DNA from: a virus
Taxonomy: Duplodnaviria > Caudoviricetes
Length of the DNA: 64,000 bases
IMG/VR virus record: IMGVR_UViG_3300037400_002261
Span: 32,001-96,000 of that record
Reading direction: 5' to 3' (one strand)
The notes under the pieces: generated by a model
The model's database searches: none
What the model saw: the letters and a program-made list of their open reading frames with translations, nothing else
What the model was told of the DNA's origin: nothing
Shown here: positions 1 through 60,600 of the stretch, one piece after another
Position numbering within the stretch: position 1 is the stretch's first letter
Layout: each line of letters opens with the position of its first letter
Made by a program: the position numbers and the translations under genes

Positions 1-1122
1 TATCTATGTGGTATTCGCAACCCCCACAATTCAGCAAATAATATTGGTTATTTTAAAAATGTTCACCATCCATTAATGGAAGAATATTTTGAATTTAGTA
101 ATAATATAATGGCTGTCAATTGTATCCATACTGATATACAGTCACGTATGAATGGCGAAGATTTTGATTCAGATTTTAATTTTGTTACAAATCAACCGCA
201 GATGGTTGAAGCTGCCAGAATAGCTTATAGAGATTATCCTACTGTTGTTAATGAAGTTGGCGAAAGCGGTTTATCATATAATAACACAATGTCTGAATAT
301 GCGAGAATGGACTCAAATATGCAGAGTGCGCAGAAAGCTATAGGTGGAGCAAGTGATACTGCTCAGTTGTCTCAAAGTTATTATTGGTCTAAGGTTGATA
401 AAAAAGAATTTGATGATGATTGTAAGCAATATTATGAGAATACTGTAATACTGGCTGTTGCAGCTCAGTTGGCAATAGATGGATGTAAGAGAGTTTATGA
501 GGTTGATGTTAACGATGATATTGCCAGAATAAGATCTCAGCCGTGTATGAAAAAAGCGAATGATTATCCGAATTTTATGAGGTGGACTCATGAGATTCCA
601 GTTACTAAAAATGGTAAAGAAAGACCTCAAGAGGATATTGCTAAAGATAAGGATAGAGTTAAAAGAAGAATAGATGAAAGTATTGTATGTCCTATGAACT
701 GGTTACAAAACTGTTTAGATAAAATACAAGGTTCTGAAAAAAAAGATATCGTAGATACTCAAAAATATTTTATCAATTTTCCAGGATGGGCTAATAATCG
801 GCAAATGTCCAAGATACGTCAGTTGATTGAAGATTATGATGGTTATACAAAAAGAATTATGTTATTAATGAAAGATGATAATGATAATGATGATTATATT
901 AATTTGTTAGGATTAAAAACGGAAGAAGTTCTATCTGAATTAAAAAAATATAAATTATCAAAATATACAATGAATAGATTAATAGGTAGTGTATTAGGAA
1001 TTGATTTAGGTGTTGGTAATCAATATAAATATCACCAATCTTCAAAGTATGTAAGAAAGACTTTAAATTTAATGTATCGAACTAACAGAGAATTATTCTT
1101 ACAAAATTTTATTAAAGCTTAA
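1..1122 (+). CDS. yonO: YonO-like single-subunit (two-barrel, RdRP-like) DNA-dependent RNA polymerase, C-terminal part (5'-truncated by window)
   Basis: Frame is open from base 1 (YLCGIRNPHN...). Contains RNPH and the catalytic-type RMNGEDFDSD (DxDxD) motif. Lies directly upstream of HU, as yonO-yonN in SPbeta. No in-frame TAG; ends TAA. Confidence 0.8.
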   Translation, partial: YLCGIRNPHNSANNIGYFKNVHHPLMEEYFEFSNNIMAVNCIHTDIQSRMNGEDFDSDFNFVTNQPQMVEAARIAYRDYPTVVNEVGESGLSYNNTMSEYARMDSNMQSAQKAIGGASDTAQLSQSYYWSKVDKKEFDDDCKQYYENTVILAVAAQLAIDGCKRVYEVDVNDDIARIRSQPCMKKANDYPNFMRWTHEIPVTKNGKERPQEDIAKDKDRVKRRIDESIVCPMNWLQNCLDKIQGSEKKDIVDTQKYFINFPGWANNRQMSKIRQLIEDYDGYTKRIMLLMKDDNDNDDYINLLGLKTEEVLSELKKYKLSKYTMNRLIGSVLGIDLGVGNQYKYHQSSKYVRKTLNLMYRTNRELFLQNFIKA

Positions 1123-1381
1123 AATACTTAAGGGTATATGATTTGAATTTATTATTTTTCAATAAATGCTTGCATTTTCGTATTTTTATTAAATTCTTTT
1201 ATATGAGGGAAAAGCGATATTTTCTTATCTACCGCTATTGCCGAGTGCGGTATAAATAAATATGGGTTCATGAATAAAAGCTAATAATACCTTTGGATGT
1301 GGGTTTAGGTTAAACATCTATTGCGCAATTTCTATATAAAAAATTATTAAACTATTACTTGATTAAAAGGAGAAAAAGGAT

Positions 1382-1654
1382 ATGAAGAAAATTGATTTTA
1401 TTAAGTTATTTGCAGAAAAGGCTAATATTACCCAGAAGGATGCAAGAGAAATTAGTGCAGCTTATTGGGATGCTATTTTTGAAGCTATGAAGGACGAAGA
1501 TGGAGTGTCTCCTGTTCAGGGTGTTAAGTTTGTAACAGTACACAAGGATTCACGTACTGCAAGAAATCCGCTTACTGGAGAATCAATCGTAGTTCCTGAG
1601 AAGGATGTGCCGAAGGTTAAGTTCGGTGCTAGTGTAAAAGATATGTTTAAGTAA
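1382..1654 (+). CDS. hup: HU family DNA-binding protein (YonN-like)
   Basis: MKKIDFIKLFAEKANIT...RTARNPLTGESIVVPEKDVPKVKFG is the HU/IHF signature; AGGAG RBS. Confidence 0.95.
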   Translation: MKKIDFIKLFAEKANITQKDAREISAAYWDAIFEAMKDEDGVSPVQGVKFVTVHKDSRTARNPLTGESIVVPEKDVPKVKFGASVKDMFK

Positions 1655-1756
1655 TTAGGTTGTTTAAGTAATTTGAATATTACTGACTACTCCAACCTCT
1701 CCCCAAACTGGGGTAGTCAGATAATATATTATTCCCAGTATAACTGCTGGGATTAA

Positions 1757-1829
1757 TGAGTATGTGGTGTAATCAGGTAGCACAGGTCATTTGGGATGAT
1801 CAGGAGGCGTTCAAATCGCACATATTCAA
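1757..1829 (+). tRNA. tRNA-Pro(UGG), atypical or possibly degenerate
   Basis: Acceptor TGAGTATG/CATATTCA, D arm GTGT/GCAC, anticodon stem GGTCA/TGATC with loop TT-TGG-GA, T loop TTCAAAT. T stem has only 3 good pairs; no CCA encoded. Confidence 0.65.
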
Positions 1830-1872
1830 CTATCAGTGATGATGCTGATTACAAAACTAAAATACAATTTTT

Positions 1873-1899
1873 AGGAGAGTCTCCCCACTCTCCTTTTTT
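1873..1899 (+). terminator. intrinsic terminator
   Basis: AGGAGAGT-CTCCCC-ACTCTCCT hairpin followed by a T run. Confidence 0.75.
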
Positions 1900-1921
1900 A
1901 TTGTAAATAAATAATAAGGAT

Positions 1922-2119
1922 GTGAAAAAGTTGATTGATATTACAAAAGACGAAATGGAATATCTTGTAAGTAAAGGAAGACTTAATGATATCCATCTTG
2001 CTTCTGCTACCCACAAGTCAGGATATAAAACAAGGTTTGTAACTGAATCTCCAAAAACATTGAAACTTTTGGAAGAGTATAGAAAAAATCAAATTGTCAT
2101 GACTTATGATGGGCGGTGA
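1922..2119 (+). CDS. hypothetical protein
   Basis: 65-aa ORF, GTG start after AAGGA, overlapping the next gene's start region. Confidence 0.7.
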   Translation: MKKLIDITKDEMEYLVSKGRLNDIHLASATHKSGYKTRFVTESPKTLKLLEEYRKNQIVMTYDGR

Positions 2120-2124
2120 ATTGC

Positions 2125-3339
2125 ATGAAGTATTTTCTTGATACAAATGTTTTATTAGAAGATATAAGTTATTATTCTTCTCTTCAATTTTTATTATCTT
2201 CTGAAACATTGATTGAACTTGAGAGAATCAAAACTAATAGAAATAGAACTGAAGATATTCGGGCTGCGGCTCGTAATGCTATAAAATGGCTTGCCGACAA
2301 TCCTAACGGATACGAGGTTATTCAATATTGTGATGCTATATATCACGAACTATGTAAACTTGAAATTGGTTATTCAGATGATGTAACTGATATTAGGATA
2401 TGCGGTTGTGTATGGTTGGCAACAAAATTATATCCAGATGAAGAAATAATATTTGTAACTCACGATCTTAGCTGTAGAAATATAGCTGAGAAAATTTTTA
2501 AATTAAACGTTGAATGGTTTGATAGTAAGGAACAAATATATAAGGGTTATAAAGAAATATCTGGTAATACTGAGTATATTAATGAATATATGGCTAATAT
2601 AGATTTATCAACTTGGTATACTAATGAATATTGTTTAATTAATAATACTGATGATAATACTCATAAAGAAATGAGATTTGATGGTACAATGTTCGTTCCG
2701 CTAAAATTACCACCTTCTAAATATATAAAAGGTAAGAACTCATTACAACGTTGTGCTCTGGATATGTTAAATAATCCATCTATAACCATATGTGCTATTT
2801 TGGGTGGATATGGTTCTGGAAAGACTATGTTAAGTACAAAGTGTGCTTTAATGTCTGTTCAGGAAAAAGGGTGGCAATCAAAAATAATAACCCTTAGAGA
2901 AATAGTTTCTGAGGGAAAAGAAATTGGTTATCTTCCAGGAGAGAAAGACACAAAGATTCTAGATTTCATGTTACCTTTTGCTGATCAGCTTGATGGCGGG
3001 GAATTCGAATTAGAATCTTTAAAACAGCGTGGAGTTATTGAAGCAAATACTCCTTATTTTATTAAAGGTAGAACTTTTAACGAAAGTATCCTGCTTGTCG
3101 ATGAAGCGGAAGATTTAACTGAAAAACAAATTAGATTAATTGGTACGAGGGTCGGACAGAACTCTCGTGTTTTTTATACTGGTGATTATTCGCAAAGTGT
3201 TATTAACCCAACAAAAAATAATGCTTTAACAAAAATGTGTAATGAATTAAAAGGGAATGAAATGTTTGCTTGTATTTATTTGGAAGATGATGTTCGCAGT
3301 GAAACAAGTAAACTTTTTGCAAATTTATTTAAAAAATAA
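2125..3339 (+). CDS. phoH: PIN-domain + PhoH-family ATPase (PhoH2-like)
   Basis: N-terminal YFLDTNVLL PIN motif; Walker A GGYGSGKT; GYLPG, FIKGRTF, LVDEAEDL and TGDYSQ PhoH motifs. Confidence 0.92.
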   Translation: MKYFLDTNVLLEDISYYSSLQFLLSSETLIELERIKTNRNRTEDIRAAARNAIKWLADNPNGYEVIQYCDAIYHELCKLEIGYSDDVTDIRICGCVWLATKLYPDEEIIFVTHDLSCRNIAEKIFKLNVEWFDSKEQIYKGYKEISGNTEYINEYMANIDLSTWYTNEYCLINNTDDNTHKEMRFDGTMFVPLKLPPSKYIKGKNSLQRCALDMLNNPSITICAILGGYGSGKTMLSTKCALMSVQEKGWQSKIITLREIVSEGKEIGYLPGEKDTKILDFMLPFADQLDGGEFELESLKQRGVIEANTPYFIKGRTFNESILLVDEAEDLTEKQIRLIGTRVGQNSRVFYTGDYSQSVINPTKNNALTKMCNELKGNEMFACIYLEDDVRSETSKLFANLFKK

Positions 3340-3362
3340 AAATATAAGGAGAATAAAAGAAT

Positions 3363-3689
3363 ATGGTTATTAGAAGTATTGAAGATAATGCAATTGAAAA
3401 AAACAATGATATTAATGGTAAGGTAGTAAGAAATCCGAGACTTGCTCGTCAGATACTTGCAAAAGGTGGAAAAGATGTATGGCTTTTTGATATTAAGCCA
3501 GATAGAGATAATCCGCAAAAGTCAGTATATATCTTTGAAAATACCGACAAGTTTCAGGAAGTACTTTCTTCTGTTTTAGATGAAAACAGACAGTCTCGCA
3601 AATCTAACGAAGATGACCTTATTCGTAAGATGGAAGAAATGCAGAAGAAACTTGATGAACTTACAAAACTTAACGAAGCAAAGGAGTGA
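3363..3689 (+). CDS. hypothetical protein
   Basis: 108-aa ORF with AGGAG RBS and a C-terminal coiled coil. Confidence 0.8.
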   Translation: MVIRSIEDNAIEKNNDINGKVVRNPRLARQILAKGGKDVWLFDIKPDRDNPQKSVYIFENTDKFQEVLSSVLDENRQSRKSNEDDLIRKMEEMQKKLDELTKLNEAKE

Positions 3690-3695
3690 TTGCGG

Positions 3696-4307
3696 ATGGA
3701 AGAATTTTTAATCTCTAGCAATGGAGATCAGATGTCTATTTATGAAGAAACATATCGTTCTTTTTTAAGTGATAGATGTATTATTTTTTGCGGAGAAATT
3801 GGTGATGGTGTAATTGATGATGCCATTATGTATATCTTAAAATGGAATAAAGAAGATAAAGATCTTCCTATTGAAAAGAGAAAGAAAATCCGCTTATATA
3901 TTAGTTCTGTTGGTGGTTCAACATTTTCTGCTAATATGTTAATAGATGTTATTGCACAAAGTAAGACTCCAGTAATTGGTGTAGCACTTGATCTTGTAGC
4001 ATCAGCAGCTTATCTTTGCTATCTTGCTTGTCATGAGCGTTATGCATTTGAGAATAGTTCATTCCTTCAACACGAGGGAGATCTTTCAATTGGAAATTCT
4101 AGATCGAAATTTAAACAAACAGCTGAGTTCTTTGATATGATGGAAAACCGTTCTAAAGAATTTATTTTGAGTAGAACTAAAATGACAAGTGAATTTTACG
4201 ATTCTGTTTATGAACAGGAATATTGGCTTTATGCTGATAAAGCGCAAGAACTCGGTATTGTTGATAAGATCGTGGGAAAAGATTGTAGTATTGATGAAGT
4301 ATTATAA
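3696..4307 (+). CDS. clpP: ClpP-family serine protease
   Basis: DRCIIF, IRLYISSVGGS, VASAAY (catalytic Ser), FLQHE (His), EYWLYADKAQELGIVDKI. Confidence 0.92.
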   Translation: MEEFLISSNGDQMSIYEETYRSFLSDRCIIFCGEIGDGVIDDAIMYILKWNKEDKDLPIEKRKKIRLYISSVGGSTFSANMLIDVIAQSKTPVIGVALDLVASAAYLCYLACHERYAFENSSFLQHEGDLSIGNSRSKFKQTAEFFDMMENRSKEFILSRTKMTSEFYDSVYEQEYWLYADKAQELGIVDKIVGKDCSIDEVL

Positions 4308-4309
4308 TG

Positions 4310-4339
4310 ATGGAGAGTAATTACTACTCTCCATTTTTT
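4310..4339 (+). terminator. intrinsic terminator
   Basis: ATGGAGAGTA-ATTAC-TACTCTCCAT hairpin plus T run right after the clpP stop. Confidence 0.8.
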
Positions 4340-4356
4340 ATATTGGAGTATAAATA

Positions 4357-4557
4357 ATGACAGATTTTATTTTAGGTAAGATTGATTGTGTAGAAGTATT
4401 AAATGCTATGAAGCAAAATACTTTTAGACCTAGCTTTCAACATTGTTATAACGTAAAACACAGACCAACATATACATTTGTCAATTGTTGTGATGAAAAT
4501 GGGAATATTATAATAAAAAGATTTGATGTAATAAAAGGCGTGTTTGTTGATAACTAA
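4357..4557 (+). CDS. hypothetical protein
   Basis: 66-aa ORF with GGAG RBS. Confidence 0.65.
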   Translation: MTDFILGKIDCVEVLNAMKQNTFRPSFQHCYNVKHRPTYTFVNCCDENGNIIIKRFDVIKGVFVDN

Positions 4558-4585
4558 ATAAATCTTATGGAGGTAAAAGGATTAA

Positions 4586-4903
4586 ATGGAGATAGATAAA
4601 TTAATTGAATTATTAACTGCTAGTCCAGAGATTGCTAATGCAACTATCACTGGGATTTTTAATCAGTATAAACCAATATTATATTTAGTTCTTAATGAAA
4701 TATTTAAGATGTATAGTGATTTGGCATATAATGATGAATACTTTAAAACATCTGCTCATTATACACGTAATAGATTTAATGCGCTTGTTAATGAGGGATT
4801 TACCGAAGATCAGGCAATGGAAATTATGTTGGCTGAAATGAGACAAGTTCGTGAAAGTGCTCAAAGGGTAACTTCTAGAACTTCAACAAGAAATAATAAA
4901 TGA
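4586..4903 (+). CDS. hypothetical protein
   Basis: 105-aa ORF with RBS; GFTEDQAMEI helical motif. Confidence 0.8.
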   Translation: MEIDKLIELLTASPEIANATITGIFNQYKPILYLVLNEIFKMYSDLAYNDEYFKTSAHYTRNRFNALVNEGFTEDQAMEIMLAEMRQVRESAQRVTSRTSTRNNK

Positions 4904-4923
4904 TGAAAAGGAGATAAAAGGAT

Positions 4924-5142
4924 ATGCAGAATTATAAGTATAATAAAGTAACAACTGAAAAATTTAATATTAAAGGCGAACTTTCTGATGATTGCAAAAC
5001 AATCAGATATATTGATGGTGACAAGGAAGAACAGGAAATTTCAGTGGCAAAATGTTTTGAGAAATTTGCTGGTCAGGAAATTGCACTTTCTCTTATGCTT
5101 AAGACAGATGAGGATCTTTCGGACGAATTTGAGGAGGAATAA
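4924..5142 (+). CDS. YonK-like small protein
   Basis: FNIKGEL...FEKFAGQEIALSL resembles SPbeta YonK; same position, before a YonJ-like gene. Confidence 0.6.
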   Translation: MQNYKYNKVTTEKFNIKGELSDDCKTIRYIDGDKEEQEISVAKCFEKFAGQEIALSLMLKTDEDLSDEFEEE

Positions 5143-5145
5143 TCC

Positions 5146-6348
5146 ATGACTCCTGATGAATTAAATAAAAAGCCAGACGAAAGTGAGTTGGCTTATATAT
5201 TACGGATTGGCAGTGCAAAAGCTGCTGGTCTGTTAGATATGACTTGGGCTGAGTTGGCAAATATATTTAATAAAAATTTGAGAGAACCTGGGCAAGAATA
5301 TAACGAGAGTACTTATAGAAAGAAGTTCGCTTCTATTCGTCAGTTTGGCGATGAATTTGGTAATAGTGATGATTACGAAGAATTAAGAAAGCTTAAAGAT
5401 GAAATCTATAAGGAAAAGCGTAAACTATTTGACCAGCGTAGAGAATATAATAAGCTTCTTACATCTGATGCGAGAGCTGAACATCTTACAGAATATATGA
5501 TTGAAGCTGCTAATAATCTTAATAAACAATATCCGTTATTGGATATTTCTGATAAGATAAATGATGGGAAAAAGGAAGCTTTAATATGTTTATCTGATTG
5601 GCATTATGGTATGGAAACTGATAATATTTGGAATAAGTATAATACATGTGTATGCCGTAATCGCATAACAATATTTATTAAATATGCCAAGAAATATCTT
5701 ACTGAACATAATATTAACACTGCGAGAATTATTCTTCTCGGTGATGCAGCCAATGGTGCTATTCATACAACTTGTCGTATAAAGTCAGAGGAGGACACTT
5801 GTGACCAAATTATGCAAGTATCTGAAATATTGGCACAAGTAATTAATGAAATTTCGTCTGTTGTTAACAATGTGATTGTTTATTCTTGTTATGGGAATCA
5901 TCTTAGAAGTGTTCAAAAAAAGGAAGATTCTATTCATTCTGATAACATGGAAAAAATTATTCCGTGGTGGCTTGAGCAACGTCTCAAAGATAATAAAAAA
6001 GTAAAAGTTGAGTATTCTAATTATAAAGAATTTACTTATATGAATATACTTGGAAAGAACATAGTTTGTATTCATGGTGATGAGTTTAATTTTAAAGATA
6101 TTGGACCAACTGTAAACACATTGTTTACTAAACTATTCGGGTGTTCTATTGATTATACAGTTTCTGGAGATAAACATCATCTTGAAGAATATGGTCAGTA
6201 TGGTATAGAGAGTATCCTTGTAAGATCTCTTTGCGGAACTGATGATTATGCTAACGGGAAACATTTATATGATAAGCCTGGGCAAACTATTATTATATTT
6301 AATGATGATTATGGTAGAGAATGTACCTACCATATTCCGTTGGATTAA
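5146..6348 (+). CDS. calcineurin-like metallophosphoesterase (YonJ-like)
   Basis: SDWHYG, LLGD, GNH, HGD and GDKHH motifs with an N-terminal coiled coil; SPbeta synteny. Confidence 0.85.
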   Translation: MTPDELNKKPDESELAYILRIGSAKAAGLLDMTWAELANIFNKNLREPGQEYNESTYRKKFASIRQFGDEFGNSDDYEELRKLKDEIYKEKRKLFDQRREYNKLLTSDARAEHLTEYMIEAANNLNKQYPLLDISDKINDGKKEALICLSDWHYGMETDNIWNKYNTCVCRNRITIFIKYAKKYLTEHNINTARIILLGDAANGAIHTTCRIKSEEDTCDQIMQVSEILAQVINEISSVVNNVIVYSCYGNHLRSVQKKEDSIHSDNMEKIIPWWLEQRLKDNKKVKVEYSNYKEFTYMNILGKNIVCIHGDEFNFKDIGPTVNTLFTKLFGCSIDYTVSGDKHHLEEYGQYGIESILVRSLCGTDDYANGKHLYDKPGQTIIIFNDDYGRECTYHIPLD

Positions 6349-6360
6349 AAGGTGTGAAAT

Positions 6361-6462
6361 ATGAAAGATATAGATTTATATTGTTGTTATTCAATAAAAC
6401 TTAGAAATTATTTAACAAATAATGATTTTAGTAAATATGAATTACCAAATATTAAATTTTAA
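6361..6462 (+). CDS. small hypothetical protein (33 aa), possibly a remnant
   Basis: AGGTG RBS; MKDIDLYCCYSIKLRNYLTNNDFSKYELPNIKF-TAA. Confidence 0.4.
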   Translation: MKDIDLYCCYSIKLRNYLTNNDFSKYELPNIKF

Positions 6463-6475
6463 GGAGAAGATAAAT

Positions 6476-7021
6476 ATGGAAAAGATTAATGTGTTAAGCA
6501 TTGAACATTTAGAAGATATCATGATTGAAAATTTAGAGGAAAATAAATCAGTGTCTTTGGTTTCAGATTTTGAAACTGTTTGGGAAATTGCTATGGATTT
6601 TCATAGGTATGAGGATGTTGAATTTGAGTATGTTGATATCAATACCGACTATGACAAGGAGTATTATCTTACTCTCATGATGGATGATGATAACAATGCT
6701 ACTATGGCAATTGAAAAAGCATTTTGTGAAGAAATTGATAATTATCTTGCCACAGATGGTATTGTATTTATTGAAGATACTGTTGATTATAAATATCTTA
6801 CTGATGTGAAAAATAATAAGCATTTAAAAGATGGCGATTTTACACCTATTATCTTTACATTTGATACAGATGATGAAAAAGATAATAAATGTGATGATTG
6901 TTTGTTTGGAAAAGAAGTTACTGATAGTCAGGTACGATTTTTTGTTCCAGCTTGTATGGATGAATTAGTTAAGGCTATTGATAACTTAATGGATAAATAT
7001 ATTGTGGATAATTATAGATAA
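6476..7021 (+). CDS. acidic hypothetical protein
   Basis: AAGGAG RBS before ATG 6476; last TAG-free gene before the suppressor tRNA. Confidence 0.8.
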   Translation: MEKINVLSIEHLEDIMIENLEENKSVSLVSDFETVWEIAMDFHRYEDVEFEYVDINTDYDKEYYLTLMMDDDNNATMAIEKAFCEEIDNYLATDGIVFIEDTVDYKYLTDVKNNKHLKDGDFTPIIFTFDTDDEKDNKCDDCLFGKEVTDSQVRFFVPACMDELVKAIDNLMDKYIVDNYR

Positions 7022-7066
7022 CTTCCCGTCTCCACTCTCCCACAGGTTATCTATATTATATTTATT

Positions 7067-7096
7067 GCCGCTGACATTTTGTTGGCGGCTTGTTTT
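7067..7096 (+). terminator. terminator-like hairpin immediately 5' of the suppressor tRNA
   Basis: GCCGCTGACA-TTT-TGTTGGCGGC followed by TTGTTTT, ending 2 nt before the tRNA. Confidence 0.6.
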
Positions 7097-7098
7097 AT

Positions 7099-7171
7099 AG
7101 GGGTGTGGTGTAATGGTTCAGCACAGGTGGCTCTAACCCACTTGATCTGGGTTCGAATCCTAGCACCCCCG
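7099..7171 (+). tRNA. amber suppressor tRNA, anticodon CUA, Gln-type
   Basis: Cloverleaf: acceptor AGGGGTG/CACCCCC (A1:C72 mismatch, G2:C71, G3:C70, G73), D arm GTGT/GCAC, anticodon stem GGTGG/CCACT with loop CT-CTA-AC (CTA at 7133-7135), T arm CTGGG-TTCGAAT-CCTAG. Confidence 0.95.
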
Positions 7172-7179
7172 TTATTTAT

Positions 7180-7252
7180 GCTGATGTAGCGCAATAGGCA
7201 GCGCAACTGATTTGTAATCAGTGGGTTGGAAGTTCAATTCTTCTCATCAGCT
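7180..7252 (+). tRNA. tRNA-Thr(UGU)
   Basis: GCTGATG/CATCAGC acceptor; ACTGA-TT-TGT-AA-TCAGT anticodon arm; TTCAATT T loop. Confidence 0.92.
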
Positions 7253-7256
7253 TTAT

Positions 7257-7331
7257 GGGAATATAGCTCAGTTTGGTGGTAGCGAGTGACTGTTAATCAC
7301 TAGGTCGTTGGTTCAAGTCCATCTATTCCCG
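7257..7331 (+). tRNA. tRNA-Asn(GUU)
   Basis: GGGAATA/TATTCCC acceptor, G73; AGTGA-CT-GTT-AA-TCACT anticodon arm; TTCAAGT T loop. Confidence 0.9.
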
Positions 7332-7336
7332 TCATC

Positions 7337-7446
7337 GGAACGGAAACATTTCGGAGTAGCTACCGAGATGTGAGTGCATTACACCTGCAGCACTCTTCCG
7401 TTCTTTTTTATTATGTAATTTGCAGGTGAGAAAGACAGGTGAGAAA
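7337..7446 (+). ncRNA. candidate structured leader RNA (three-way junction + T run + RBS-pairing loop) of the GIY-YIG gene
   Basis: P1 GGAACGGAA/TTCCGTTCT, P2 ACATTTCGG/CCGAGATGT, P3 GAGTGC/GCACTC. P3 loop CACCTGCA is complementary to TGCAGGTG (7421-7428) and to the duplicated CAGGTG RBS. Confidence 0.55.
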
Positions 7447-8581
7447 ATGATTGGAATATATAAAATAACTAATTTAGAGAATGGAAAAATGTATGTTGGT
7501 CAATCTGTTGATATAAATAGAAGATGGAAAAATCATAAAAGGTTATTAAATAATAATAAACATCAAAATAAACATTTGCAGAGTTCTTGGAATATTTATG
7601 GATCTGAAAAATTTGAATTTTCAATTATTGAGTTATGCAATGAAAATGAATTGGATGAGAAAGAAATATATTGGATAGATAAACTAAGAACTTATCATGG
7701 TTTTCCAGATTGTAATGGATATAATGATGCGCTTGGTGGAAAAGGTGCTTCATGTATTCATCCTGTATTACAATTTAATTTATCTGGTGATTTAATTAAA
7801 AAATGGTAGAATGCTCTATATGCTGCTAGAGAACTTAATATTGATGCTAGTATCATATATTTATGTATACACAGAAAAATTAAACGGGCTGGAAAATATA
7901 TTTTTTGTTATATTGAGGATTATAATAATTCAGATAGTCTAAAATGGTATTTTGATGATAGAAAAGTCGCTCCAGTATTACAATGTGATTTATTTGGAAA
8001 TATTATTAATAAATGGGATACTTGTCAAATAGCTAAATCTGAATTGGGGTATAATCCTATTAGATCTAGAGAAAATAATACTTTGGTTTCTCATGGATAT
8101 ATCTATATTTATGAAGATGATTATAATCAATTGACTGATGAATATTTACAATATATTCGTAGTGCATATAATAAAGTAAAGGTAAAAAAAAGTTATTCAA
8201 TTAGATCAGAATGGAGTTATTGTTCAATCATTTGATTCTATGCATGATGCAGCCAGAAATGGCTTTCATATTAGAATGGTGAGAGAATGCTGTCAACATA
8301 AGCGAAATACATTAAAAGGATTTGTGTTTTGTTATGATGATGAAATAGATAATTATACTCCAGAAAAATGTTATGAATTATGTAATTCTAGAAGAAAAAA
8401 TAATCGTGGGAAAAAAATTATTCAAATTGATAAAGATAATACAATTGTAAAAATTTATGATAAATTATCTGATGTTTTAGTTGATGGTTTTAATATGAGT
8501 AATGTAAGTGATTGCTGTAATGGTTTAGTTGATAACTATAAAGGATATAAATGGATTTATGAAAAGGATGGTGCTATATGA
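7447..8581 (+). pseudogene. free-standing GIY-YIG homing endonuclease with NUMOD1-like repeats; one TAG (Gln) and a frameshift at an A8 run
   Basis: MIGIYKITNLENGKMYVGQS is the GIY-YIG motif. Reads through TAG 7807. At A8 (8184-8191) the repeat VIQLDQNGVIVQSFDSMHDAA continues in the +1 frame to TGA 8581. Confidence 0.8.
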
Positions 8582-9624
8582 TAAGATTAAGACCAGCACT
8601 TACAGAAGAAGAAGTGAGAAAAACTGGCGTTGCATAGATAAGGCAGGAATATAATAAATTAGCCAAAGATTATAATCGTATAATTAATGGGGATGTATAT
8701 TTATGTCAAAAATGTAACGAATTTCACAGTGTTGATGCTTTCTATAGTGATAAAAAATATGCAAGTGGTTTATTCCCTATATGTAAAAAATGTTTAATAG
8801 GTATGGCTTGTGACTATGATAAAAAAACAAATCAATATACTGATAATCGTGAAAAGACAATGAAGGTTTTGGAAATGATGGATTTGCCATATATTGATTC
8901 TATGTATCAATCCGCTCTTACTTCTTGTGCGGAAGATGTTCAAGACAAACATCGGAATACTGCATGGTCACATTATATTACTGTTATTAAATCTCTTCCA
9001 AATTGGCGTGGTAAAGGATGGGCAGATTCAGAATTACCATCAGATCAATTTGAGGAAGAAGTAAAAATAAATAATAAAACTCTTAAAAACGCAGTTAAAA
9101 GATTTGGACCAGGTTACACAAATGAAGATTATATGTTTCTTGAAAATGAATATCAAGATTGGATAACAAGATATGAGTGTAATACAAAGGCTCAAGAAGC
9201 TGCATTCGAAAGATTGAGTTTTAAAAAGTGGGAAATTAATAATGCTACCAAGAAAGGTCTTCCAACCAAGGATTTGGATAAGACTTATCAAGAATGGCTA
9301 GGTACTGCTAACATACAACCAAGGCAGACAAGTATGGATGCTACTGCTGATGCTCAAACGTTTGGAACATTAATTCAAAAATATGAAGAAACTAGACCTC
9401 TTCCAGAAATTGATCCCGACTTGGAAGATGTTGATAAGATAGGCTTGCTGATTGATGTGTTTTTCCGTGGACACGCAAGCAAGATGTTAGGATTAAAAAA
9501 CACGTTTTCGCATTTATATGAAAGATTTATGAAAAAATATACAGTAAACAAACCAGAATATGATGAGGATACTGATAGCGAAACTGTTTTTGAAAAAGTA
9601 TTTGGTAGTATGGAGGATGATTAA
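8578..9624 (+). CDS. terS: probable terminase small subunit (YonG-like, Zn finger); TAG=Gln
   Basis: ATGA overlap start; one TAG at codon 20; CQKC...CKKC zinc finger; directly upstream of terL with TAATG coupling. Confidence 0.7.
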
Positions 9625-11390
9625 TGCCACCAAAAAATAAAAAGACATTAGCAGATGTTCAGAAAGAAAAGTCTGAGCGTTTAATGGACGGGATCGCATA
9701 TTGGGCAGCTTTCTATAGAAAGAATGCTCATAGATTTGTAAATGATTTTTTAAATATTAAGCTGAAAACATTTTAGAAAATTTTAGTGTACATGATGATG
9801 GTTAGCACTAATTTTCTATATATTGCAAGCCGTGGTTCTGGTAAGACTTGGCTTACAGCTTTATATTGTGTAGTCCGTTGTATTTTATATCCAGGCACAA
9901 AGATTTGTGTTGCATCTGGTGTAAAATCATAGGCTGTTGAAGTAATTACGAAAATTGATACAGACTTCTTGAAAAATTATTCATGGGGTTCTTAGAATTT
10001 AAGAAATGAAATAGAATATATATCAACGAGTGTTAATAATGCTCGTGTAGATTTTAAGAATGGTTCTTGGATTACTGTTGTTACTAGTAATGATAATGCT
10101 CGTCATAATCGTGCGAATATTGTTGTTGTAGATGAATTTAGGATGGTTGATTTAAATGTGATCAATACTGTATTGAGAAAATTCTTAACAACATCAAGAA
10201 TGCCTGGATATTTAAGTAAACCAGAGTATGCTCACTTACAAGAGCGTAACTCTGAAATATATATGAGTTCAGCTTTTTATCAAAGTCATTGGAGTTTTGA
10301 TAAGACAAAATCATATTTTGCAAATATGTTGGATGATAAAAGGCGATATTTTTGTTGTAGCCTACCTTATTAGCTTGCTATTAAAGAGGGATTATTATCT
10401 CGTGAACAAGTTGAAGATGAAATGAGTGAGGCAGATTTTGATCCTATTGCATTCTCTATGGAGATGGGTGCTGAATTTTATGGAGATTCTGATGGGGCAT
10501 TTTTCAGATATGATGATATATCTAAATGCAGAAAAATAAAAACTCCATATTATCCTATTGATTTTTATGATAAGCGTGGTATCAATGTACCAGAATTAGC
10601 AATAGGGGAAAGAAGAATATTGTCGGTTGACGTAGCTCTTATGGCATCAAGAAAACATAATAATGACGCTGCTGCTATCACAATTAATGTAGCATTACCG
10701 AATAGTGATACTTCTTATATAAGTAATATTGTATATGTTGAAACATTTGAGGGATTAACAACAGATGAATTAGGACTTACTATAATGAGATATTTTTACC
10801 ATTATAAATGTACTGATTTAGTTCTGGATAGTTCTGGCAATGGTTTAGGTGTTTATGATGTTATTATTAAAGAAACATATGATCCATAGCTTGGTATAAC
10901 GTATGATGCGTTATGCGCATGTAATGATGATAATATGGCAAGTCGTTGTAAAGTTAAAAATGCAAGAAAATGTGTTTGGTGTATTAAAGCATCTGCGGAT
11001 TTTAACTCAAATGCTGCTACTGCTTTGAGGGCTGGTTTTAAAAATGGAAATATTAATCTTCTTGTTTCAGAATTTGATGCCGAGGAAATTATAAAAAAGA
11101 CAAAAGGATATTCTAAGTTATCTGCCAAAGAATAGGCTACATTAAGTTTGCCATATTTATAGACAAGTCTTTTGATTAATGAAATGATAAATTTGGAACA
11201 TGAGATAAATAATAACAAGGTAAAATTAAAAGAGCGGTCAGGAATGAGAAAGGATAGATTCAGTTCTATTGAATATAATTATTGGATTGCACAAGAACTT
11301 GGTTTAAAACTTAGACCTAAACAATCATCTAATGATTTATTAAAATATATATCTATTACTCCACCTTGCCGTTCAAAAACTTATGATTAA
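9624..11390 (+). CDS. terL: terminase large subunit (588 aa); TAG=Gln
   Basis: One frame across 7 TAGs. LKTF[TAG]KIL Q-motif, Walker A ASRGSGKT, Walker B VVVDEF, nuclease motifs SVDVA, LVLDSSG and RKDRFSS. Confidence 0.95.
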
Positions 11391-11409: not shown

Positions 11410-13002
11410 ATGCCCAGAAAACCTAAAGCGCAAGAGGCGCTTACTGATAGTCGTGAAGGTGTTATGAGCCAACAACTTGTTCCAAAAAAGAAAAAGGATG
11501 AAGTTGAGGTTATAAATAGACCTACGGCTTTAGATTTTGAAAAAACCAAAAAACTGAAAGAGTTGATTTTGTAGGATGTTTCCAGAGGTAGGACGCAGAC
11601 TGCAATGCAATATACAAAAAGTTTGGTTTCTACTTATTTATAGAATCCATATAACTTCAGAAGTTAGATAATTGGTGTATCCAGATTTTTATGGAGAGTT
11701 AGTGCGATTTATCGTAAGATAATTTTTTATTATGCTACAATGCCTAAATATAATTATTGTATTGTTGAAAGACCAGAATTTACAAAAACTCCTAATGTTA
11801 AAAAAATGTTGAATGATTATGAGACAGTTCTTCGCAGAGTACATCAATTTAATTTTAAAGAAGAATTTGCCACTGCTATTGCTCTTGCAATACGTGATGG
11901 TTCATATGTTGGTTATATGTATGATAATGAAAATGAAGGGTCTTTTCTTCATATGCTACCAGTGGAGTATTATAAAATACGTGGTAAGAATGAAGCTGGA
12001 CAATGGGTGGTATTTTTTGATGCTACATATTTTGCAGTTGGTCAGAATAGAATATTTGTAGAAGGTATTGATGGTGACACTTCTGGGTGTTGGGCAGATG
12101 AGTTTATACAAGGATGGAAAGATTATAATTCTAACAGGGATTTAAGATGGTTTATGTTAGATCCATCTAAGACTATAACTCTTCTTGGTGGACTTCAAGA
12201 TGAATTTGATAATCCATTACCTTTTTTTACTGGGTTGTTTCCGTCTATTCTTAATATGTTATCTGCTGAAGAACTGGTAGCTGATAGAACAGAATTAGAC
12301 AACTTCTATCTTCTTCTGTTAAAGATTGATACTTTTGATGAAAATACTGTTGATGATTTTGAAGTAAGCCTTGAATTGGCTAATGCTTATAAAGATGCTC
12401 TTGAGGGTATTATGCCGAAATTAAGTGGCGTAGGTCTGGCTCCAGGTATGGTGCCTGAACTTATTACGTTTAATAAGGCTAATTCAACTAATGACGAAAG
12501 TATTGTTCAGGAAAATATAAATAATATTTTTGCTCAATCTGGAGCAAGTCAAACAGTTGTTTCTTCTGGAGATTCACAAAGTGCATTGAGTATTAAATAT
12601 TCGCTAATTAATGATTTTAGCTATGTTGCTCTTCTTCTTTCTCGCCTTGAAAAAAATTATCAATATTATATTGATAAAAATATTTCCGAGAATACTATTT
12701 TCACCATTCATCATCAAACACATTATAATGAAGATGAATATCTTGAAAAGTTAAAAACTTCAGCGACTCTTGGTGGTTCTGCCATGAAGTATGGCACAGC
12801 AATGAATATGACACCATATGAATTTTATTGCACTATAAAATTTGAGTCTGCAATTGGTTTAAAATCTATGATGGAGCCTCTTGAGTCTAGTTATCAAAAG
12901 TCAGCGAATGATAATGATGATGCAGGTAGACCAAGGGCTTCTGATGATGAGATATCTGGAAGCGCAGAGAGAACGAGAAATATAGTTGATGATAATGTAT
13001 AA
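11410..13002 (+). CDS. portal protein (YonE-like, 530 aa); TAG=Gln
   Basis: AGGAGG RBS; 3 TAGs in the first 90 codons; follows terL; acidic C-terminus with the GRP motif typical of portals. Confidence 0.85.
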
Positions 13003-13572: not shown

Positions 13573-14748
13573 ATGGCTTATAATAAAGAAACTGGAATGT
13601 ATGAAGGGTTTATATATAAAATAACAAATAATATTAATGGTCATTTTTATATTGGACAAACTCGTACAACTGTTGAAGAAAGATTTTATAATCATACAAA
13701 AGATTATTCAATAAGTAAATATCAAAAATACGGTTTATACAAAGCTTTTAAAAAGTATGGCGTTGATAATTTTAGTGTTGATACAATAGAAACTCATCAA
13801 GCATTTACACTTACAGAATTAAATAATATATTAAATGAAAGGGAAATGTTGTTAATAGCAGAAAATCGTAATATATATGGTAAAGATTTTTTATATAATC
13901 ATTCTCGTGGTGGGGACTATGATGGTTGTGCAACTGAAAATATACCTGTGATACAATATAATTATATAGGTGAAGAAATTAATAGATTTGATTCTATTGT
14001 TGATGCTAAAAGAATCACTGGGGTTTCTGGTATTAGTGGAGTTATTAATAAAAAACCATAGAATTTATCTTCTGGTGGATATATTTGGAGAAAACAAAAT
14101 GATCCTTTGACAAATGAAGAAATTCGTTTTATTATGATTCATTTTAATACAATGCCGATTAGATAGTATGGATATAATAATACATTTATTAAACAATATG
14201 ATTCAGTTAAAGAAGCTTCTGAATCTATTGCCAATGATAGATACAATAATAATGATATTGTATCACATATAAAAATGTGTTGTGAACATAAAAGTAAAAC
14301 GGCATACGGATATATATGGAGATATGAATTTGATAATTCTTTTGATGATGTAGATTATAAAAACTGTCAATTTGCAATTGAACAAAGAGAAAACGGCACT
14401 GGTAAATTACTTAATACGTTTATCTCTACTATAGAAGCAGAAAAAATAACTGGTGTTGATGATAGTATTATTTCACAATGTTGTAATCATAATTTAGATT
14501 CAGCGGGTGGTTATTTGTGGAATAAAGTAGGGGATTATAATCCGAATATTCTTAAAACTATAACAATTAAACCAGTTGTTCAATTATCAAAACAAGGTGA
14601 ATATATAGCCACTTACGATTCTCCGACTTGTGCTCAAAATGCAACTGGTATTTATTCTAAAAGTATTAGCAGAGTATGTAGAGGCTTTTTAAAATCTACT
14701 GGTGGATATAATTGGCAATATTTATATGATTATTTAAAAATATTATAA
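13573..14748 (+). CDS. free-standing GIY-YIG homing endonuclease with NUMOD1-like repeats (391 aa); TAG=Gln
   Basis: GFIYKITNNINGHFYIGQT; repeats PVIQY, PIR[TAG]Y and PVVQL with GGYxW ends; 2 TAGs join the track fragments. Confidence 0.9.
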
Positions 14749-24659: not shown

Positions 24660-25664
24660 ATGGCTCGTAGCCGAGGAGTTTACAACAGAATTTATAGTGA
24701 CGAAAAATGGTTATAGGTTAATCCTGAAAATAAAGCCATAATGGATGACTTCCTCACAGAGTTGCGACAATAGAAAAAAAGTCCAAATACTATTGAAGCA
24801 TATAGACATGATTTAAAATTAATATTTATAAAAATTCTTGAAGACTTTAATAATAAGTCAGTTTTAGAAATGACAAAGAAAGATTTTCGCCGTTTAAATA
24901 TTTGGTTTGATGATTCTGGAATGTCTCCAGCGAGATGTAATAGGCTTCACTCTTCTATCAATTCAATGTTAACATTTTGCGAAGAAGATGATGATTATGA
25001 TTATGAAGTTAATTATAGTAAGAAAGTGCGTGGAGTTCCTAACGAAAAAGTAAAAACAAATGATGATGATTTCTTCTTTACATTTGATGAATTTATTAAA
25101 ACAAGGAATATTCTTGTAGAACAAGGTAGATTGTAGGATGCTGTGTTATGGTCTTTAATGTATGATTCTGGTGCGAGACGTAATGAAGTATATCAAGTAA
25201 AGAAACAAGGTCTTCTTGATGGTAACAAAACAAATATTGTTAGAGGTAAACGTGGAAAACAATTTCCACTTATTTATTTAAATGATACGAAAGAACTTAT
25301 TCGCCAATATCTTGAATGGCGTGGTGATGATGGAATTGATTCATTATGGATTAAAGGACATGGAGAAACTGCTTCTGAGATTGATTGTTCTACATTATAT
25401 GATCGTATTGTAAGTATTAGTAAAATACTTTCTGAGGTTCGTGGTGAAGAAGTTAATATTTTTCCGCATAGTTGCCGCCATAGTAGATTGCAAGCATTAA
25501 AAAAGGGATGGGATGACCGTCTTAAGGATGATGGAGGGAAAAATAAAGTATTTGAATTAGATCAAATATAGGCATTTGCACATCATTCAGATTTAACAAC
25601 TACTTCTGGGTATCTTAAAGATGAAACTGAAGACAAAATAAATGAAATGTTTGGAATTTCATAA
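24660..25664 (+). CDS. tyrosine recombinase (YomM-like, 334 aa); TAG=Gln
   Basis: SGARRNE (R), VRGKRGK (K), PHSCRHSR (HxxR), I[TAG]AFAHHSDLTTTSGY (H and catalytic Y); 4 TAGs. Confidence 0.92.
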
Positions 25665-56808: not shown

Positions 56809-57651
56809 ATGAGTGGATTTATATATAGAAATCAATCTACTGAAAATATTATTGGACGTAGATTAATATTATGCAGTTTTGACGGTGCGGTCAGCTCTAT
56901 CACTGGTGTACAGCGTCAAAACCAAATTGGGGAAGTGACTATCACTCGGCATATCCCCAATGAATATGGTGTGATTAATTCAAATCTTCAATTTCAATAC
57001 TCTCTCACTCTCGACCCTTGCTATAAGGACGCAGCACCGTTTATTACAAACGAAGAACAAATTGTAATTGAAAGGTGGTTAACTTCACCAAAATTTTCGA
57101 GTGATTTATATATTATTAATGACAACGATGAAATAACATGTACATATTGCGGGAAATTTACTGAAACAACTTGGATACCTAGTCGTGAAGGATTTTCGGG
57201 TGTAACTTTTACATTTGAAAATAATTCCGCTTACGCAAAGGAACATAGAGAATTTACATTTAGTAGTGATACAAACAATTGGAGTTTTGTATTAGATTGT
57301 GATTCGGATGAACTGGAAGAATATGTTTATCCTGTTATTACATTTATAAATCCTAATAGTACAACAGAAATAAAAATTACAAATCATACAGACATTGGTG
57401 AAATAAATAATAACACTCTTAACGTTGAAAAAGATATTCCTCTTATTATGGATTGCCGACATTGTATTTTAACAAATGGTGTGACAAATGGTACGTTTTC
57501 ATTTGATGATGTTGGTTGGGCTGATGTTGGAAATATCTATTGGCCCAGATTGATACCTGGGGAAAATGAAATCTGGATTGATAAACCATGCACAATAAAA
57601 GTCTCGTATGATGTAGTAAGAAAGAAAGTGGGTGGATGGTTAAATGATTGA
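56809..57651 (+). CDS. distal tail protein (Dit, YomH-like)
   Basis: Directly after the TMP; IERWLTSP, YVYPVI and WPRLIPGENEI motifs; no TAG. Confidence 0.85.
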   Translation: MSGFIYRNQSTENIIGRRLILCSFDGAVSSITGVQRQNQIGEVTITRHIPNEYGVINSNLQFQYSLTLDPCYKDAAPFITNEEQIVIERWLTSPKFSSDLYIINDNDEITCTYCGKFTETTWIPSREGFSGVTFTFENNSAYAKEHREFTFSSDTNNWSFVLDCDSDELEEYVYPVITFINPNSTTEIKITNHTDIGEINNNTLNVEKDIPLIMDCRHCILTNGVTNGTFSFDDVGWADVGNIYWPRLIPGENEIWIDKPCTIKVSYDVVRKKVGGWLND

Positions 57652-60600
57652 AGCCCAAAAGAAAATATATTTATGTAGACCAAATGGTAAAATACTTACA
57701 TAGCTTAATGGTGTTGATACTGAATCGGTTGAATACGGTGTTCATGTAAAAGATTTTAATGATATATCATTTACTGTGTAGAGATATATTCTTGTTGATG
57801 GTGAACAAGTTGAAACTAATGGCTATAATGATCTTCATGTTGGAATGAATATTCTTCTTGAAGGAAAAGATATGTTTTAGATACAAGAGCCTACTATTTC
57901 TAATGATGGTGTTAAAGAATATAAAACTGTAAAAGGTTATTCTCTTGAACATGAATTTATGGAGAAAAGTTGGATTGGATTAAAAGTTAATACTGGCGAA
58001 GACGGTTCACTTGAATATCAATCAAAATCTAATCTTGATGATTTTGGATTTTCAAAACAGTACGTCACATTTTATAAGCCTAATAATTCTGGACAAACGG
58101 AATATTCGCTTATTCACCGTATTCTTGAGAAAGTACCAGGCTGGTCTGTAGACGATAAGGATATAGATGGTGTTCTTTATGATAAGAAGATTAAGATTGA
58201 TGAAGAGAATATAAATCTTTATGCTTTATTAACATCAGTGATTGCACCAAAGGCAGAATGTATATTCTTGTTTGATACTATTAATAAAAAGATAAAAGCT
58301 GTTGCTAAAGAAAGTCTTGATGCTACGTATTATGATACTAATATATTTGTTTCAATGAGAAACTTAGTCAGAACTTTAGATGTTTAGACAAATGAAGATT
58401 CGGTATATACTGTATTTAATGTTTCTGGTGAAGATGATTTAAATATCAGATATGTAAATTATAATGATAGATATATTTATGACTTATCTTATTTTATGGC
58501 TGAACCGTGGATGAACCAAACACTCATTGATAAAATAGCGGCTTGGTAGCAATGGCGAGAAGATAATCATGATTTATATATTTAGAAATCAAAGCAAGTC
58601 GAAGAACTGAATGATCGAATTTATATGATTACCTATCAAACTCCCAATGATGGTGATGATTGGTAGCAATGGGATACAATGAGTTTGGAAGGATTGAATG
58701 GAGCATATAGAATGTTCTATGCATATTTAGTTGCTATTCTTGCAAGTGCTGATGGTGACCCATCTTATGATGAAAATGGTGATTATATTATTCGCCGTAA
58801 CGGTGCTGGCGAAATAGATGATGATTATTATAAACCGAGATTATTATCTGACTCTCTTGGATACTACACATATTATGAAATAAAAACTTATATTCTTCCA
58901 AATATTCAAATAGCAGTTGATAATAAGGCTAAGGTAGAAGATAAAAAAACTGATTATGTTAAAGAATATGAAACTAATTGGGAATTATATGGGTTGAATC
59001 TTCTTGACGAAAAGAAGAAACAAATTTCAGATTAGATATTAAATTTAGCTGATTATGAAAAAAATTGGGATGATATGACTAATCAAGAAAAAGCACAATA
59101 TAATGAGATGTCATACAAAACACATCATCAATAGCTTATGGAACGTATTGAATGGTATGATGGTTTGGTTGAGAGGGAAGATGAACTTAATGAAGAAAAG
59201 GCATCTATTTAGAATTAGATTGATGCCCTTAAACCCGAACTTGAAGAGTTTAGAAACAAGGCTTTAATCACACACAGTGATTGGGGTCTTACCGAGGATG
59301 AACTTGAATTATTTAATATCCTTTGTAAATATACTGATTACACAAATAGTAATATAGTGACTACTTCTCTCACAACAACTACGAGTAAGTTTGAGAACCA
59401 AGAGGAATTATATAAAGACTCTGTATCAAAACTTTCTGAAGTTTCTTAGCCACAATATAGTTTTAATGTAGATATTGATAATTTCTTTGATATACCTGAG
59501 TTCGCAGCTTGGAAAGAAAAATTCCATCTATTGAGATTTATGAGAGTTGGAATTCGTGATGATTATTCTGTTAAGTTGAGACTTATTGGATATACTACAA
59601 ATCCTTGTGAAATTGACCCGATGTTAACTGTAGAATTCTCTAACTTTATTACATCAAAATCTGGAAGAAGTGATCTTACAGAATTGTTATAGTTGGAAAG
59701 TGGTTCTTCAAGTCCAAACTCTATATCAATTGGTAAAGGTAATGCTAGTGATGCCGAAGAATATGCCACAAATTTATTTTATATGTTATCTAAAAGCGGA
59801 ATGTTTAAATCTGGTGCTAGTAATACTGCAAGTGGAACTACTAATTCTACATTCTCTGGTGTTAGTACTGCTAATCTTATTAATCTTTATACAACAACTG
59901 GATATATTACTGATGCTGTTATGAGTGAAGCTAAAGTAACTGACTATCTTGATGCTGTTAAAGTTAATGCCGCCACGGTTTAGGCGGGAACTGTTATTGC
60001 CGACAGAATTCTTCTTAAAGGTAATGGGAGTGGAATCCTTTATTAGTTAAATAATCTTGGTGGTCTTGAGAGCGAAAATATGAGTACGCTTGATGGATTT
60101 ATATTAACTGATCGTACTATTCTTGCTGATAAGATTGTTGCGGATACTATTACGGCACGAGAAATTACAACTGACAAGTTACGTGGTACTGGTGGATGGA
60201 TTAATCTTAGAGATGGTTCATTTTGGTATGGGCGAGGTGCTTATACTAATAATGATAATTTTGTAAGTTATAAAGAAGATCCAGTTGAAAAAGCTGCCGA
60301 GGAAGCATTAGCCGCACAGATAAATAATAGTGATAATTCTATTTCTTGGATAAACGGTGTTTTAAATATTGATGGTATTATTACTGCTAGGGATGGTGGA
60401 GATATTGGTGGTTTCAAGGTTTCAACTACTGCCAATATTGGCACTACTGCATAGGGTGGGCATCGATTCCCGAAATCTCTCTATCACCAAACAAGTGATA
60501 ATACTTATGAATATGAGACTGGTATTACTGATGGATTAATTAGCGGAAACCTTCTCCCAACTCAAAAGGCATTTTATATTAAGAGAATTGCTAAAGGTGC

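Follow-up and report, generated by a model that had tools for sequence, protein, structure and literature searches.

A phage amber suppressor tRNA with an open 1:72 position, probably charged by host GlnRS for a TAG=Gln late-gene programme

Introduction

Late-gene recoding of TAG to Gln with suppressor tRNAs is established in crAss-like phages, Lak phages and several Bacillota-infecting clades (bioRxiv 10.1101/2021.08.26.457843; PMC9523058; PMC10607447), and metaproteomics of crAss-like phages has verified the assignment (PMC9523058). Charging by host GlnRS is assumed in these three reports, in the consulted sections of which the acceptor-stem identity of the suppressors is left unanalysed, and the Borges et al. 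discussion raises the charging of suppressors in the host as a question (bioRxiv 10.1101/2021.08.26.457843).

A CCA-to-CUA anticodon change in tRNA-Trp gave the E. coli suppressor su+7(UAG), a GlnRS substrate (Yaniv et al. 1974, cited in PMC2965240). With this anticodon, E. coli tRNATrp is no longer recognised by TrpRS and is aminoacylated by GlnRS instead (PMC2965240). Gln identity is defined by 1-72, 2-71, 3-70, G73 and U35, and tRNAfMet, tRNATrp and tRNASer accept Gln once they are converted to amber suppressors (PMC9976931). In the indirect pathway, bacterial GatCAB uses U1-A72 (PMC2811023), as does GluRS2 (PMC9976931); GatCAB was tested against G1-C72, and mismatches were not among the variants (PMC2811023). 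The main determinant for B. subtilis GluRS acting on tRNA-Gln is the modified U34 (Kim and Soll 1998, cited in PMC9976931).

Here we analyse a window of 64,000 nucleotides, which corresponds to bases 32001-96000 of an IMG/VR contig of 107,285 bp. The contig is linear, without end repeats, has 32.8% G+C and is estimated by CheckV to be ~54% complete. At least ten studies of bovine and goat gut metagenomes contain this phage DNA. A first-pass annotation had placed an amber suppressor tRNA with Gln identity and an A1:C72 mismatch in this window. Together, our results indicate that the locus encodes a phage amber suppressor that very probably decodes a TAG=Gln late-gene programme and is probably charged by host GlnRS.

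Results

The suppressor tRNA and its surroundings

The suppressor gene heads a small tRNA array at the border of two gene blocks. The features around it and the main late genes are as follows.

1-7021, + strand: TAG-free gene block, whose last genes include PhoH/PIN, ClpP-like and others; no in-frame TAG and no TAG stop
7067-7098, + strand: terminator-like hairpin of 10 pairs (7067-7089) followed by a T-run; consensus scan
7099-7171, + strand: amber suppressor tRNA(CUA); Rfam RF00005, ARAGORN, and the same sequence in independent assemblies
7180-7252, + strand: tRNA-Thr(UGU), second of the array; Rfam 69.6 bits, ARAGORN
7257-7331, + strand: tRNA-Asn(GUU), third of the array; Rfam 61.1 bits, ARAGORN
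7420-8235, + strand: GIY-YIG homing endonuclease, first gene past the array; needs TAG read-through at 7807
9624-11390, + strand: large terminase (TerL) with 7 in-frame TAG, six of which are CAA/CAG in ~80%-identical non-recoded relatives
11410-13002, + strand: portal protein with 3 in-frame TAG
31815-56747, + strand: single open frame of 8310 codons with 164 in-frame TAG, the largest suppressor client
57644-61936, + strand: late gene of 1430 codons with 24 in-frame TAG

When the whole window was searched, Rfam RF00005 (gathering score 29) matched 7099-7171 over the full length of the model with 57.5 bits (E 9e-10). The acceptor stem is AGGGGUG/CACCCCC, in which A1 (7099) stands unpaired opposite C72 (7170). 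In the Rfam model alignment this is the sole non-canonical pair of the tRNA; the remaining stems are perfect, with G2:C71 (7100/7169), G3:C70 (7101/7168), G4:C69, G5:C68, U6:A67 and G7:C66 in the acceptor stem. The discriminator is G73 (7171), and G10 is present. The anticodon CTA (7133-7135) lies within the loop CUCUAAC on a 5-bp anticodon stem, the 9-nt D loop is canonical with GG, and the T loop is UUCGAAU. TTATTT follows G73, so that CCA is not encoded. The complete cloverleaf, the CTA anticodon, G2:C71, G3:C70, G73, the open 1:72 position and the missing CCA had all been reported in the first-pass annotation, and each is confirmed by the sequence and the Rfam alignment. Minimum-free-energy folding did not return a cloverleaf for the suppressor; such folding is uninformative for tRNAs, and the covariance model was therefore used for the fold.

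Three further studies of the bovine gut (X3, X4 and X6) gave contigs with an unchanged suppressor and differing flanking positions. Since these contigs show no difference inside 7099-7171, A1/C72 is not an assembly error.

ARAGORN finds the same tRNA gene at 7098-7172 with anticodon cta, labels it 'Pyl' and draws an extra T/G pair. The 8-bp acceptor stem that this pair would create was rejected: in the family of related suppressors, base -1 varies among A, C and T, and there is thus no consistent pairing with G73. The label reflects the anticodon only, as the fold is canonical. The fold of tRNA-Pyl is atypical, with a short D loop, a 3-nt variable loop and a 6-bp anticodon stem. A tRNA-Pyl identity was also discarded in view of the canonical D loop and the 5-bp anticodon stem, and the TAG sites show no Lys enrichment.

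ARAGORN identified four tRNAs on the 107-kb contig, of which a single one has the anticodon CUA. Three of them form the array Sup(CUA)-Thr(UGU)-Asn(GUU) at 7099-7331. The terminator-like hairpin ends ~10 nt 5' of the suppressor and would close the TAG-free gene block, acting as a terminator. A theta (HDV-like) ribozyme directly behind the suppressor (the idea comes from bioRxiv 10.1101/2023.06.13.544163) was considered and dropped: the gap to tRNA-Thr is 8 nt, and no ribozyme family was detected in 1600-8400 at E<=1.

Several further elements were observed near the array. In two other studies (X3 and X6), the 5 nt just 3' of the tRNA-Thr anticodon, within 7218-7224, are replaced by 779 letters, which could be an intron-like or mobile insertion present in some strains. 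Directly behind the array lies a conserved, structured element of ~70 nt (7337-7404; 228-295 in relative L001), made up of an outer stem GAACGG/CCGUUC, the two hairpins within it and a U run on its 3' side. Between the two copies, two pairs are changed on both sides with pairing kept. The element has no Rfam match and may function either as a small RNA or as a complex terminator. The fourth tRNA, tRNA-Pro(UGG) at 1758-1828 (42 bits), was found by ARAGORN and a laxer scan, was missed by the default-filter Rfam scan, and has a D arm similar to that of the suppressor.

TerL shares 49% identity with YonF from Bacillus phage SPbeta, and the portal protein matches phrog_2739; by these comparisons, the phage is classified as an SPbeta-like siphovirus of Bacillota. 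GIY-YIG/HNH homing endonuclease genes (7420-8235 and 13573-14748) flank the packaging genes and have 1 and 2 in-frame TAG of their own. The TerL matches of L008 and L009 are fragmented, suggesting that elements intervene. The late region also holds a tyrosine recombinase/integrase-like gene (phrog_1; 24660-25664); it has 4 in-frame TAG and would therefore be made only after the code switch.

TAG recoding and the inserted amino acid

Across the 107-kb contig, 34 early genes contain no in-frame TAG and 40 late genes contain 296, while all gene ends are TAA or TGA and none is TAG. The transition is abrupt: the TAG-free genes run up to 7021, and the first in-frame TAG past the array is at 7807. 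Fragmented + strand frames past the array merge into long genes once TAG is taken as a sense codon. Early genes use 87 CAA, 102 CAG and 0 TAG codons, and late genes use 545 CAA, 135 CAG and 296 TAG codons. CAG is thus numerically replaced by TAG in the late genes.

To find out what TAG replaces, we compared the late proteins with relatives that keep the standard code. Four non-recoded IMG/VR relatives (L002-L005), whose TerL is 79-83% identical, have CAA or CAG at 6/7 TerL TAG sites, and the closer relative L001 (TerL 92% identical) is itself recoded at five of the seven. TerL Q51, Q103 and Q250 are invariant Gln columns in alignments that reach down to 48% identity. When all late proteins were compared with non-recoded relatives from IMG/VR and bacterial genomes, 28 TAG sites gave 239 aligned cells, of which 52% were Gln against a background of 2.9%; Trp occurred in 0 cells and Lys was not enriched. 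Such alignments show the descent of the TAG sites from Gln codons and do not give a direct reading of the inserted residue. Since several TAG sites sit at invariant Gln positions, Gln insertion at UAG is strongly implied. The earlier proposal of an amber suppressor for Gln is thus borne out by the CUA anticodon, the 296 late TAG codons and the alignment of TAG sites with Gln. The tRNA is, by comparison, a code-15 (TAG=Gln) phage suppressor of a known kind, and it very probably functions as a Gln-inserting amber suppressor. The standard-code relatives stand at ~80% TerL identity, which suggests that the recoding is recent.

tRNA kinship and identity elements

Matches of the suppressor in phage collections are nearly all annotated as tRNA-Gln. 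CUA suppressors of crAss-like phages are 86-90% identical to it over positions 8-65, with a completely different acceptor stem. In a BLAST search of four candidate host genomes only 20 nt of tRNA-Pro matched, so the suppressor was not recently copied from a host tRNA. The tRNA-Gln(UUG) of three Lachnospiraceae has the acceptor UGGGCUA/UAGCCCA, with U1:A72, G2:C71, G3:C70 and G73, a differing D arm and no encoded CCA. The tRNA-Trp(CCA) of Eubacterium plexicaudatum ASF492 has the acceptor AGGGGUG/CACCCCU and G73. The suppressor is identical to the latter at 13/14 stem positions, and the only difference is C72 for U72. An exact search with the D-arm word GGUGUAAUGG returned nothing but an unrelated phage tRNA-Trp(CCA), and this D arm is thus not Gln-specific.

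We compared the suppressor with the bacterial GlnRS and TrpRS identity sets of PMC9976931 (Table 1). From the GlnRS set, G73, G2-C71, G3-C70, G10, C34, U35 and A37 are present, while U1-A72 (A1/C72 instead), G36 (A36) and U38 (C38) are missing. The tRNA shares G73, G2-C71, G3-C70, G4-C69, G5-C68, C34 and A36 with the TrpRS set, but C72 breaks A1-U72, and G and U replace A9 and C35. The acceptor holds 5/6 bacterial Trp acceptor determinants. A36 is obligatory in any amber suppressor. U1-A72 of the GlnRS set is a weak pair, opened when the enzyme binds, and A1/C72 may be functionally equivalent to it in the opened state. Since both determinant sets are partly present, the suppressor is a Trp/Gln hybrid. 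The Gln identity assigned at first pass therefore holds for G73, G2:C71, G3:C70, G10, U35 and A37, but the acceptor stem resembles that of tRNA-Trp more than that of tRNA-Gln.

Candidate hosts and their synthetases

A TerL scan of bacterial genomes needed an alignment-based query, as a single-protein query found nothing. The nearest prophage TerL relatives are in Lachnospiraceae: ASF492 (62% identity, on a 238-kb contig), Konateibacter, Robinsoniella and Anaerocolumna (53-56%) and a Lachnospiraceae MAG (68%). The host is probably a member of the Lachnospiraceae, a bovine-gut Bacillota, as judged solely from TerL similarity of 54-68%. Another TerL, also 68% identical, lies on contig JAZQNA010000062.1 (L015; 157,930 bp) of a 'Candidatus Absconditabacterales' MAG. 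A phage contig binned with the wrong genome is the most likely explanation, and we do not take it as a sign of an Absconditabacterales host.

GlnRS was searched with TIGR00440 at its curated cut-off. Matches above the cut-off were found in 3/3 isolates, in 114/121 Lachnospiraceae genomes (94%) and in 23/26 genomes of the genus of the best-hit MAG. The expectation that the host should encode GlnRS thus agrees with what the isolates and the family show. The genome with the best TerL hit (G004) has no GlnRS match; we read it as an incomplete MAG and not as GlnRS-less, because 23/26 genomes of its genus have GlnRS. All four candidate host genomes tested have gatB.

A glnS gene on the phage itself had also been suggested as a check, and here the search came back empty: no Glu/Gln class-I synthetase domain was found in 107 kb of the ~54% complete phage contig. 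The predicted constraint on host range survives in part. It disfavours Bacilli, but it is weak within Lachnospiraceae, where GlnRS is near-universal; the candidate hosts tested also carry gatB.

Recurrence of the 1:72 mismatch

Pattern searches of IMG/VR that required GGGG at positions 2-5 yielded 23 unique phage tRNA(CUA), a set that includes related phages and is thus non-independent. A 1:72 mismatch occurs in 12/23 of them and in 1/125 other elongator tRNAs (Fisher p 1e-10). The family has G2-G5 and mostly G73, and its 1:72 position is U:A, A/C, U/C or U/U, never G:C. Pairs 6:67 and 7:66 covary (AG/CU, UA/UA, AU/AU, UG/CA and CG/CG). Most members are 86-94 nt long, and their variable region holds a further stem-loop, GCYYYCUGARGGC, that is conserved; the short form is represented by the window tRNA and one tRNA common to L075 and phAss-1. 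Long-arm tRNA(CUA) genes found by the pattern scan include the following, with ~15 further loci in the family.

L001, 5509-5594, no strand marked: long-arm tRNA(CUA)
L046, 4655-4744, no strand marked: long-arm tRNA(CUA)
L047, 1619-1707, - strand: long-arm tRNA(CUA)
L048, 7931-8021, - strand: long-arm tRNA(CUA)
L050, 2031-2120, - strand: long-arm tRNA(CUA)
L078, 1486-1576, - strand: long-arm tRNA(CUA) in phAss-1

The close relative L001 carries its long-arm A1/C72 suppressor at another site, past the portal gene. One of the phAss-1 suppressors has U1/C72 with G73, and crAss-like cr53_1 has U1/U72. No tRNA was found in the first 50 kb of phAss-1, whose suppressors were located by pattern search. 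In the phages of this set, ordinary tRNA-Gln(UUG) has a paired 1:72 position (A1:U72 or U1:A72).

As side observations, the long-arm suppressors are class-II-like with a Gln/Trp-type acceptor and occur mostly in tRNA-rich contigs of 130-180 kb. Large phage contigs with long-arm suppressors also carry a tmRNA with the tag peptide ARYQYQMAA (L047:3100-3399 and L049:7664-7963, both on the - strand).

It is tempting to speculate, although we regard this as doubtful, that an open 1:72 position (A/C, U/C or U/U, never G:C) is a selected hallmark of phage Gln amber suppressors across unrelated lineages and host phyla. If so, the open position would pre-open the acceptor end for GlnRS and act against TrpRS and GatCAB/GluRS2. 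TAG=Gln recoding would then be confined to hosts with GlnRS, which would account for the occurrence of code-15 phages in Bacteroidota and Clostridia and not in Bacilli, and the window tRNA would be a natural Trp-to-Gln identity switch of the su+7 type, completed by the single U72>C change.

Discussion

We propose a working model for the suppressor in the phage cycle. A naive host would read the TAG-free genes upstream of the tRNA array. The Sup-Thr-Asn array, just behind the terminator-like hairpin, would head the late operon, and host enzymes would trim the precursor and add CCA. Host GlnRS would then charge the suppressor directly with Gln, and the charged tRNA would read UAG in late mRNAs in competition with RF1. 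In this model, G73, G2:C71, G3:C70 and G10 would serve as determinants common to Gln and Trp, and, as su+7 illustrates in E. coli, U35 would turn the tRNA from TrpRS to GlnRS. With C72 opposite A1, the tRNA would lose the A1-U72 determinant of TrpRS and offer the open end that GlnRS otherwise has to melt. Judging from initiator tRNA, a tRNA with an open 1:72 should bind EF-Tu less well, a point against the model. On the sequence evidence, the suppressor is probably charged directly by host GlnRS.

Other routes to a charged suppressor have to be weighed against direct charging by GlnRS. The acceptor is that of ASF492 tRNA-Trp except at position 72, and C34 and A36 are TrpRS determinants, so host TrpRS might accept the suppressor as well and UAG would be read as a mixture of Gln and Trp. 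We consider this unlikely, since the major TrpRS determinant C35 is U, A9 is G and A1-U72 is broken, Trp stands opposite TAG in 0/239 cells, and TrpRS no longer recognises E. coli tRNATrp(CUA) (PMC2965240). Charging with Glu by a non-discriminating GluRS followed by GatCAB amidation, the usual route in Bacilli, is quite improbable. This is the route of most Bacillota outside Clostridia (PMC2811023), and gatB is present in 4/4 candidate hosts, but 94% of the likely host family has GlnRS, and the substrate features of the indirect pathway are not found in this tRNA. The suppressor has C34, in contrast to the modified U34 determinant of B. subtilis GluRS, and it has A1/C72 in place of the U1-A72 on which bacterial GatCAB and GluRS2 rely; the ND-GluRS/GatCAB route is thus disfavoured twice. 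The earlier statement that GatCAB needs U1:A72 is supported insofar as the bacterial enzyme uses this pair (PMC2811023), but that the suppressor cannot use GatCAB is an extrapolation from G1-C72, the variant covered by the tests, to a mismatch.

The enzyme might also be the phage's own. The contig is linear without end repeats and ~54% complete, and some recoded phages do carry aminoacyl-tRNA synthetases, such as the TrpRS of Jade phages (bioRxiv 10.1101/2021.08.26.457843), so a dedicated synthetase from the unsampled part of the genome could charge the suppressor. We give this very little weight: the 107 kb at hand contain no class-I Glu/Gln synthetase domain, phage synthetases are rare among recoded phages according to that report, and the complete Bacillota code-15 phage phAss-1 has none (PMC10607447). 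The mismatch atop the acceptor stem and the lack of an encoded CCA might instead mark a decaying or non-functional copy, with TAG read by other means. This is extremely improbable, as the other stems are perfect and the sequence is constant across independent samples while the flanks vary. Other phage lineages also keep the mismatch while further pairs of the stem covary, 296 in-frame TAG need a decoder and only one CUA tRNA was found, and host tRNA-Gln genes likewise have no encoded CCA. Charging by host GlnRS accordingly stays our preferred reading.

Phage recoding of TAG to Gln is already known, and it is extended here to an SPbeta-like bovine-gut lineage. What this case adds, and what seems to have gone unremarked so far, is a Trp-type acceptor with a single U72>C change together with a recurrent open 1:72 position. 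This leads to a testable hypothesis, namely that the phage hijacks GlnRS by means of an acceptor that mixes Trp and Gln features and is open at 1:72. It also offers a simple guide for predicting hosts, which should be GlnRS-positive. As a compact amber suppressor of natural origin, the tRNA might serve genetic-code work in Clostridia. For annotation, this lineage needs table 15 downstream of the tRNA array.

Among phage systems, the crAss-like code-15 suppressors (cr53_1, cr60_1 and cr7_1) have the same role and are closely related over positions 8-65, and cr53_1 likewise has an unpaired 1:72 (U/U). Unlike the window tRNA, they have an acceptor of the UGCCCUA.../A73 type, encode CCA and belong to phages with Bacteroidota hosts. 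As in phAss-1 and other Bacillota code-15 phages, TAG stands for Gln in structural genes and no phage synthetase was found, although the present contig is incomplete. phAss-1 differs in belonging to an unrelated lineage and in carrying 36 tRNAs, three of them suppressors, with encoded CCA, and the consulted sections of its description contain no discussion of the 1:72 mismatch (PMC10607447).

Among bacterial suppressors, E. coli supE (glnV) tRNA-Gln(CUA), which inserts Gln via GlnRS, shares CUA, G73, G2:C71, G3:C70 and G10 with the window tRNA. By contrast, supE has U1:A72, U38 and a different D arm, and the window tRNA is no copy of a host tRNA-Gln. The likeness to su+7 extends to the Trp-type acceptor (A1, G2-G5, G73), the CUCUAA core of the anticodon loop and the Gln outcome, which is deduced here from sequence comparison. 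Whereas su+7 keeps A1:U72 and rescues a mutation, the window tRNA has C72 and an open 1:72, a D arm of the GGUGUAAUGG type, and is encoded by a phage in which it would serve a whole late-gene programme. With these differences, the window tRNA is best seen as a putative natural analogue of su+7.
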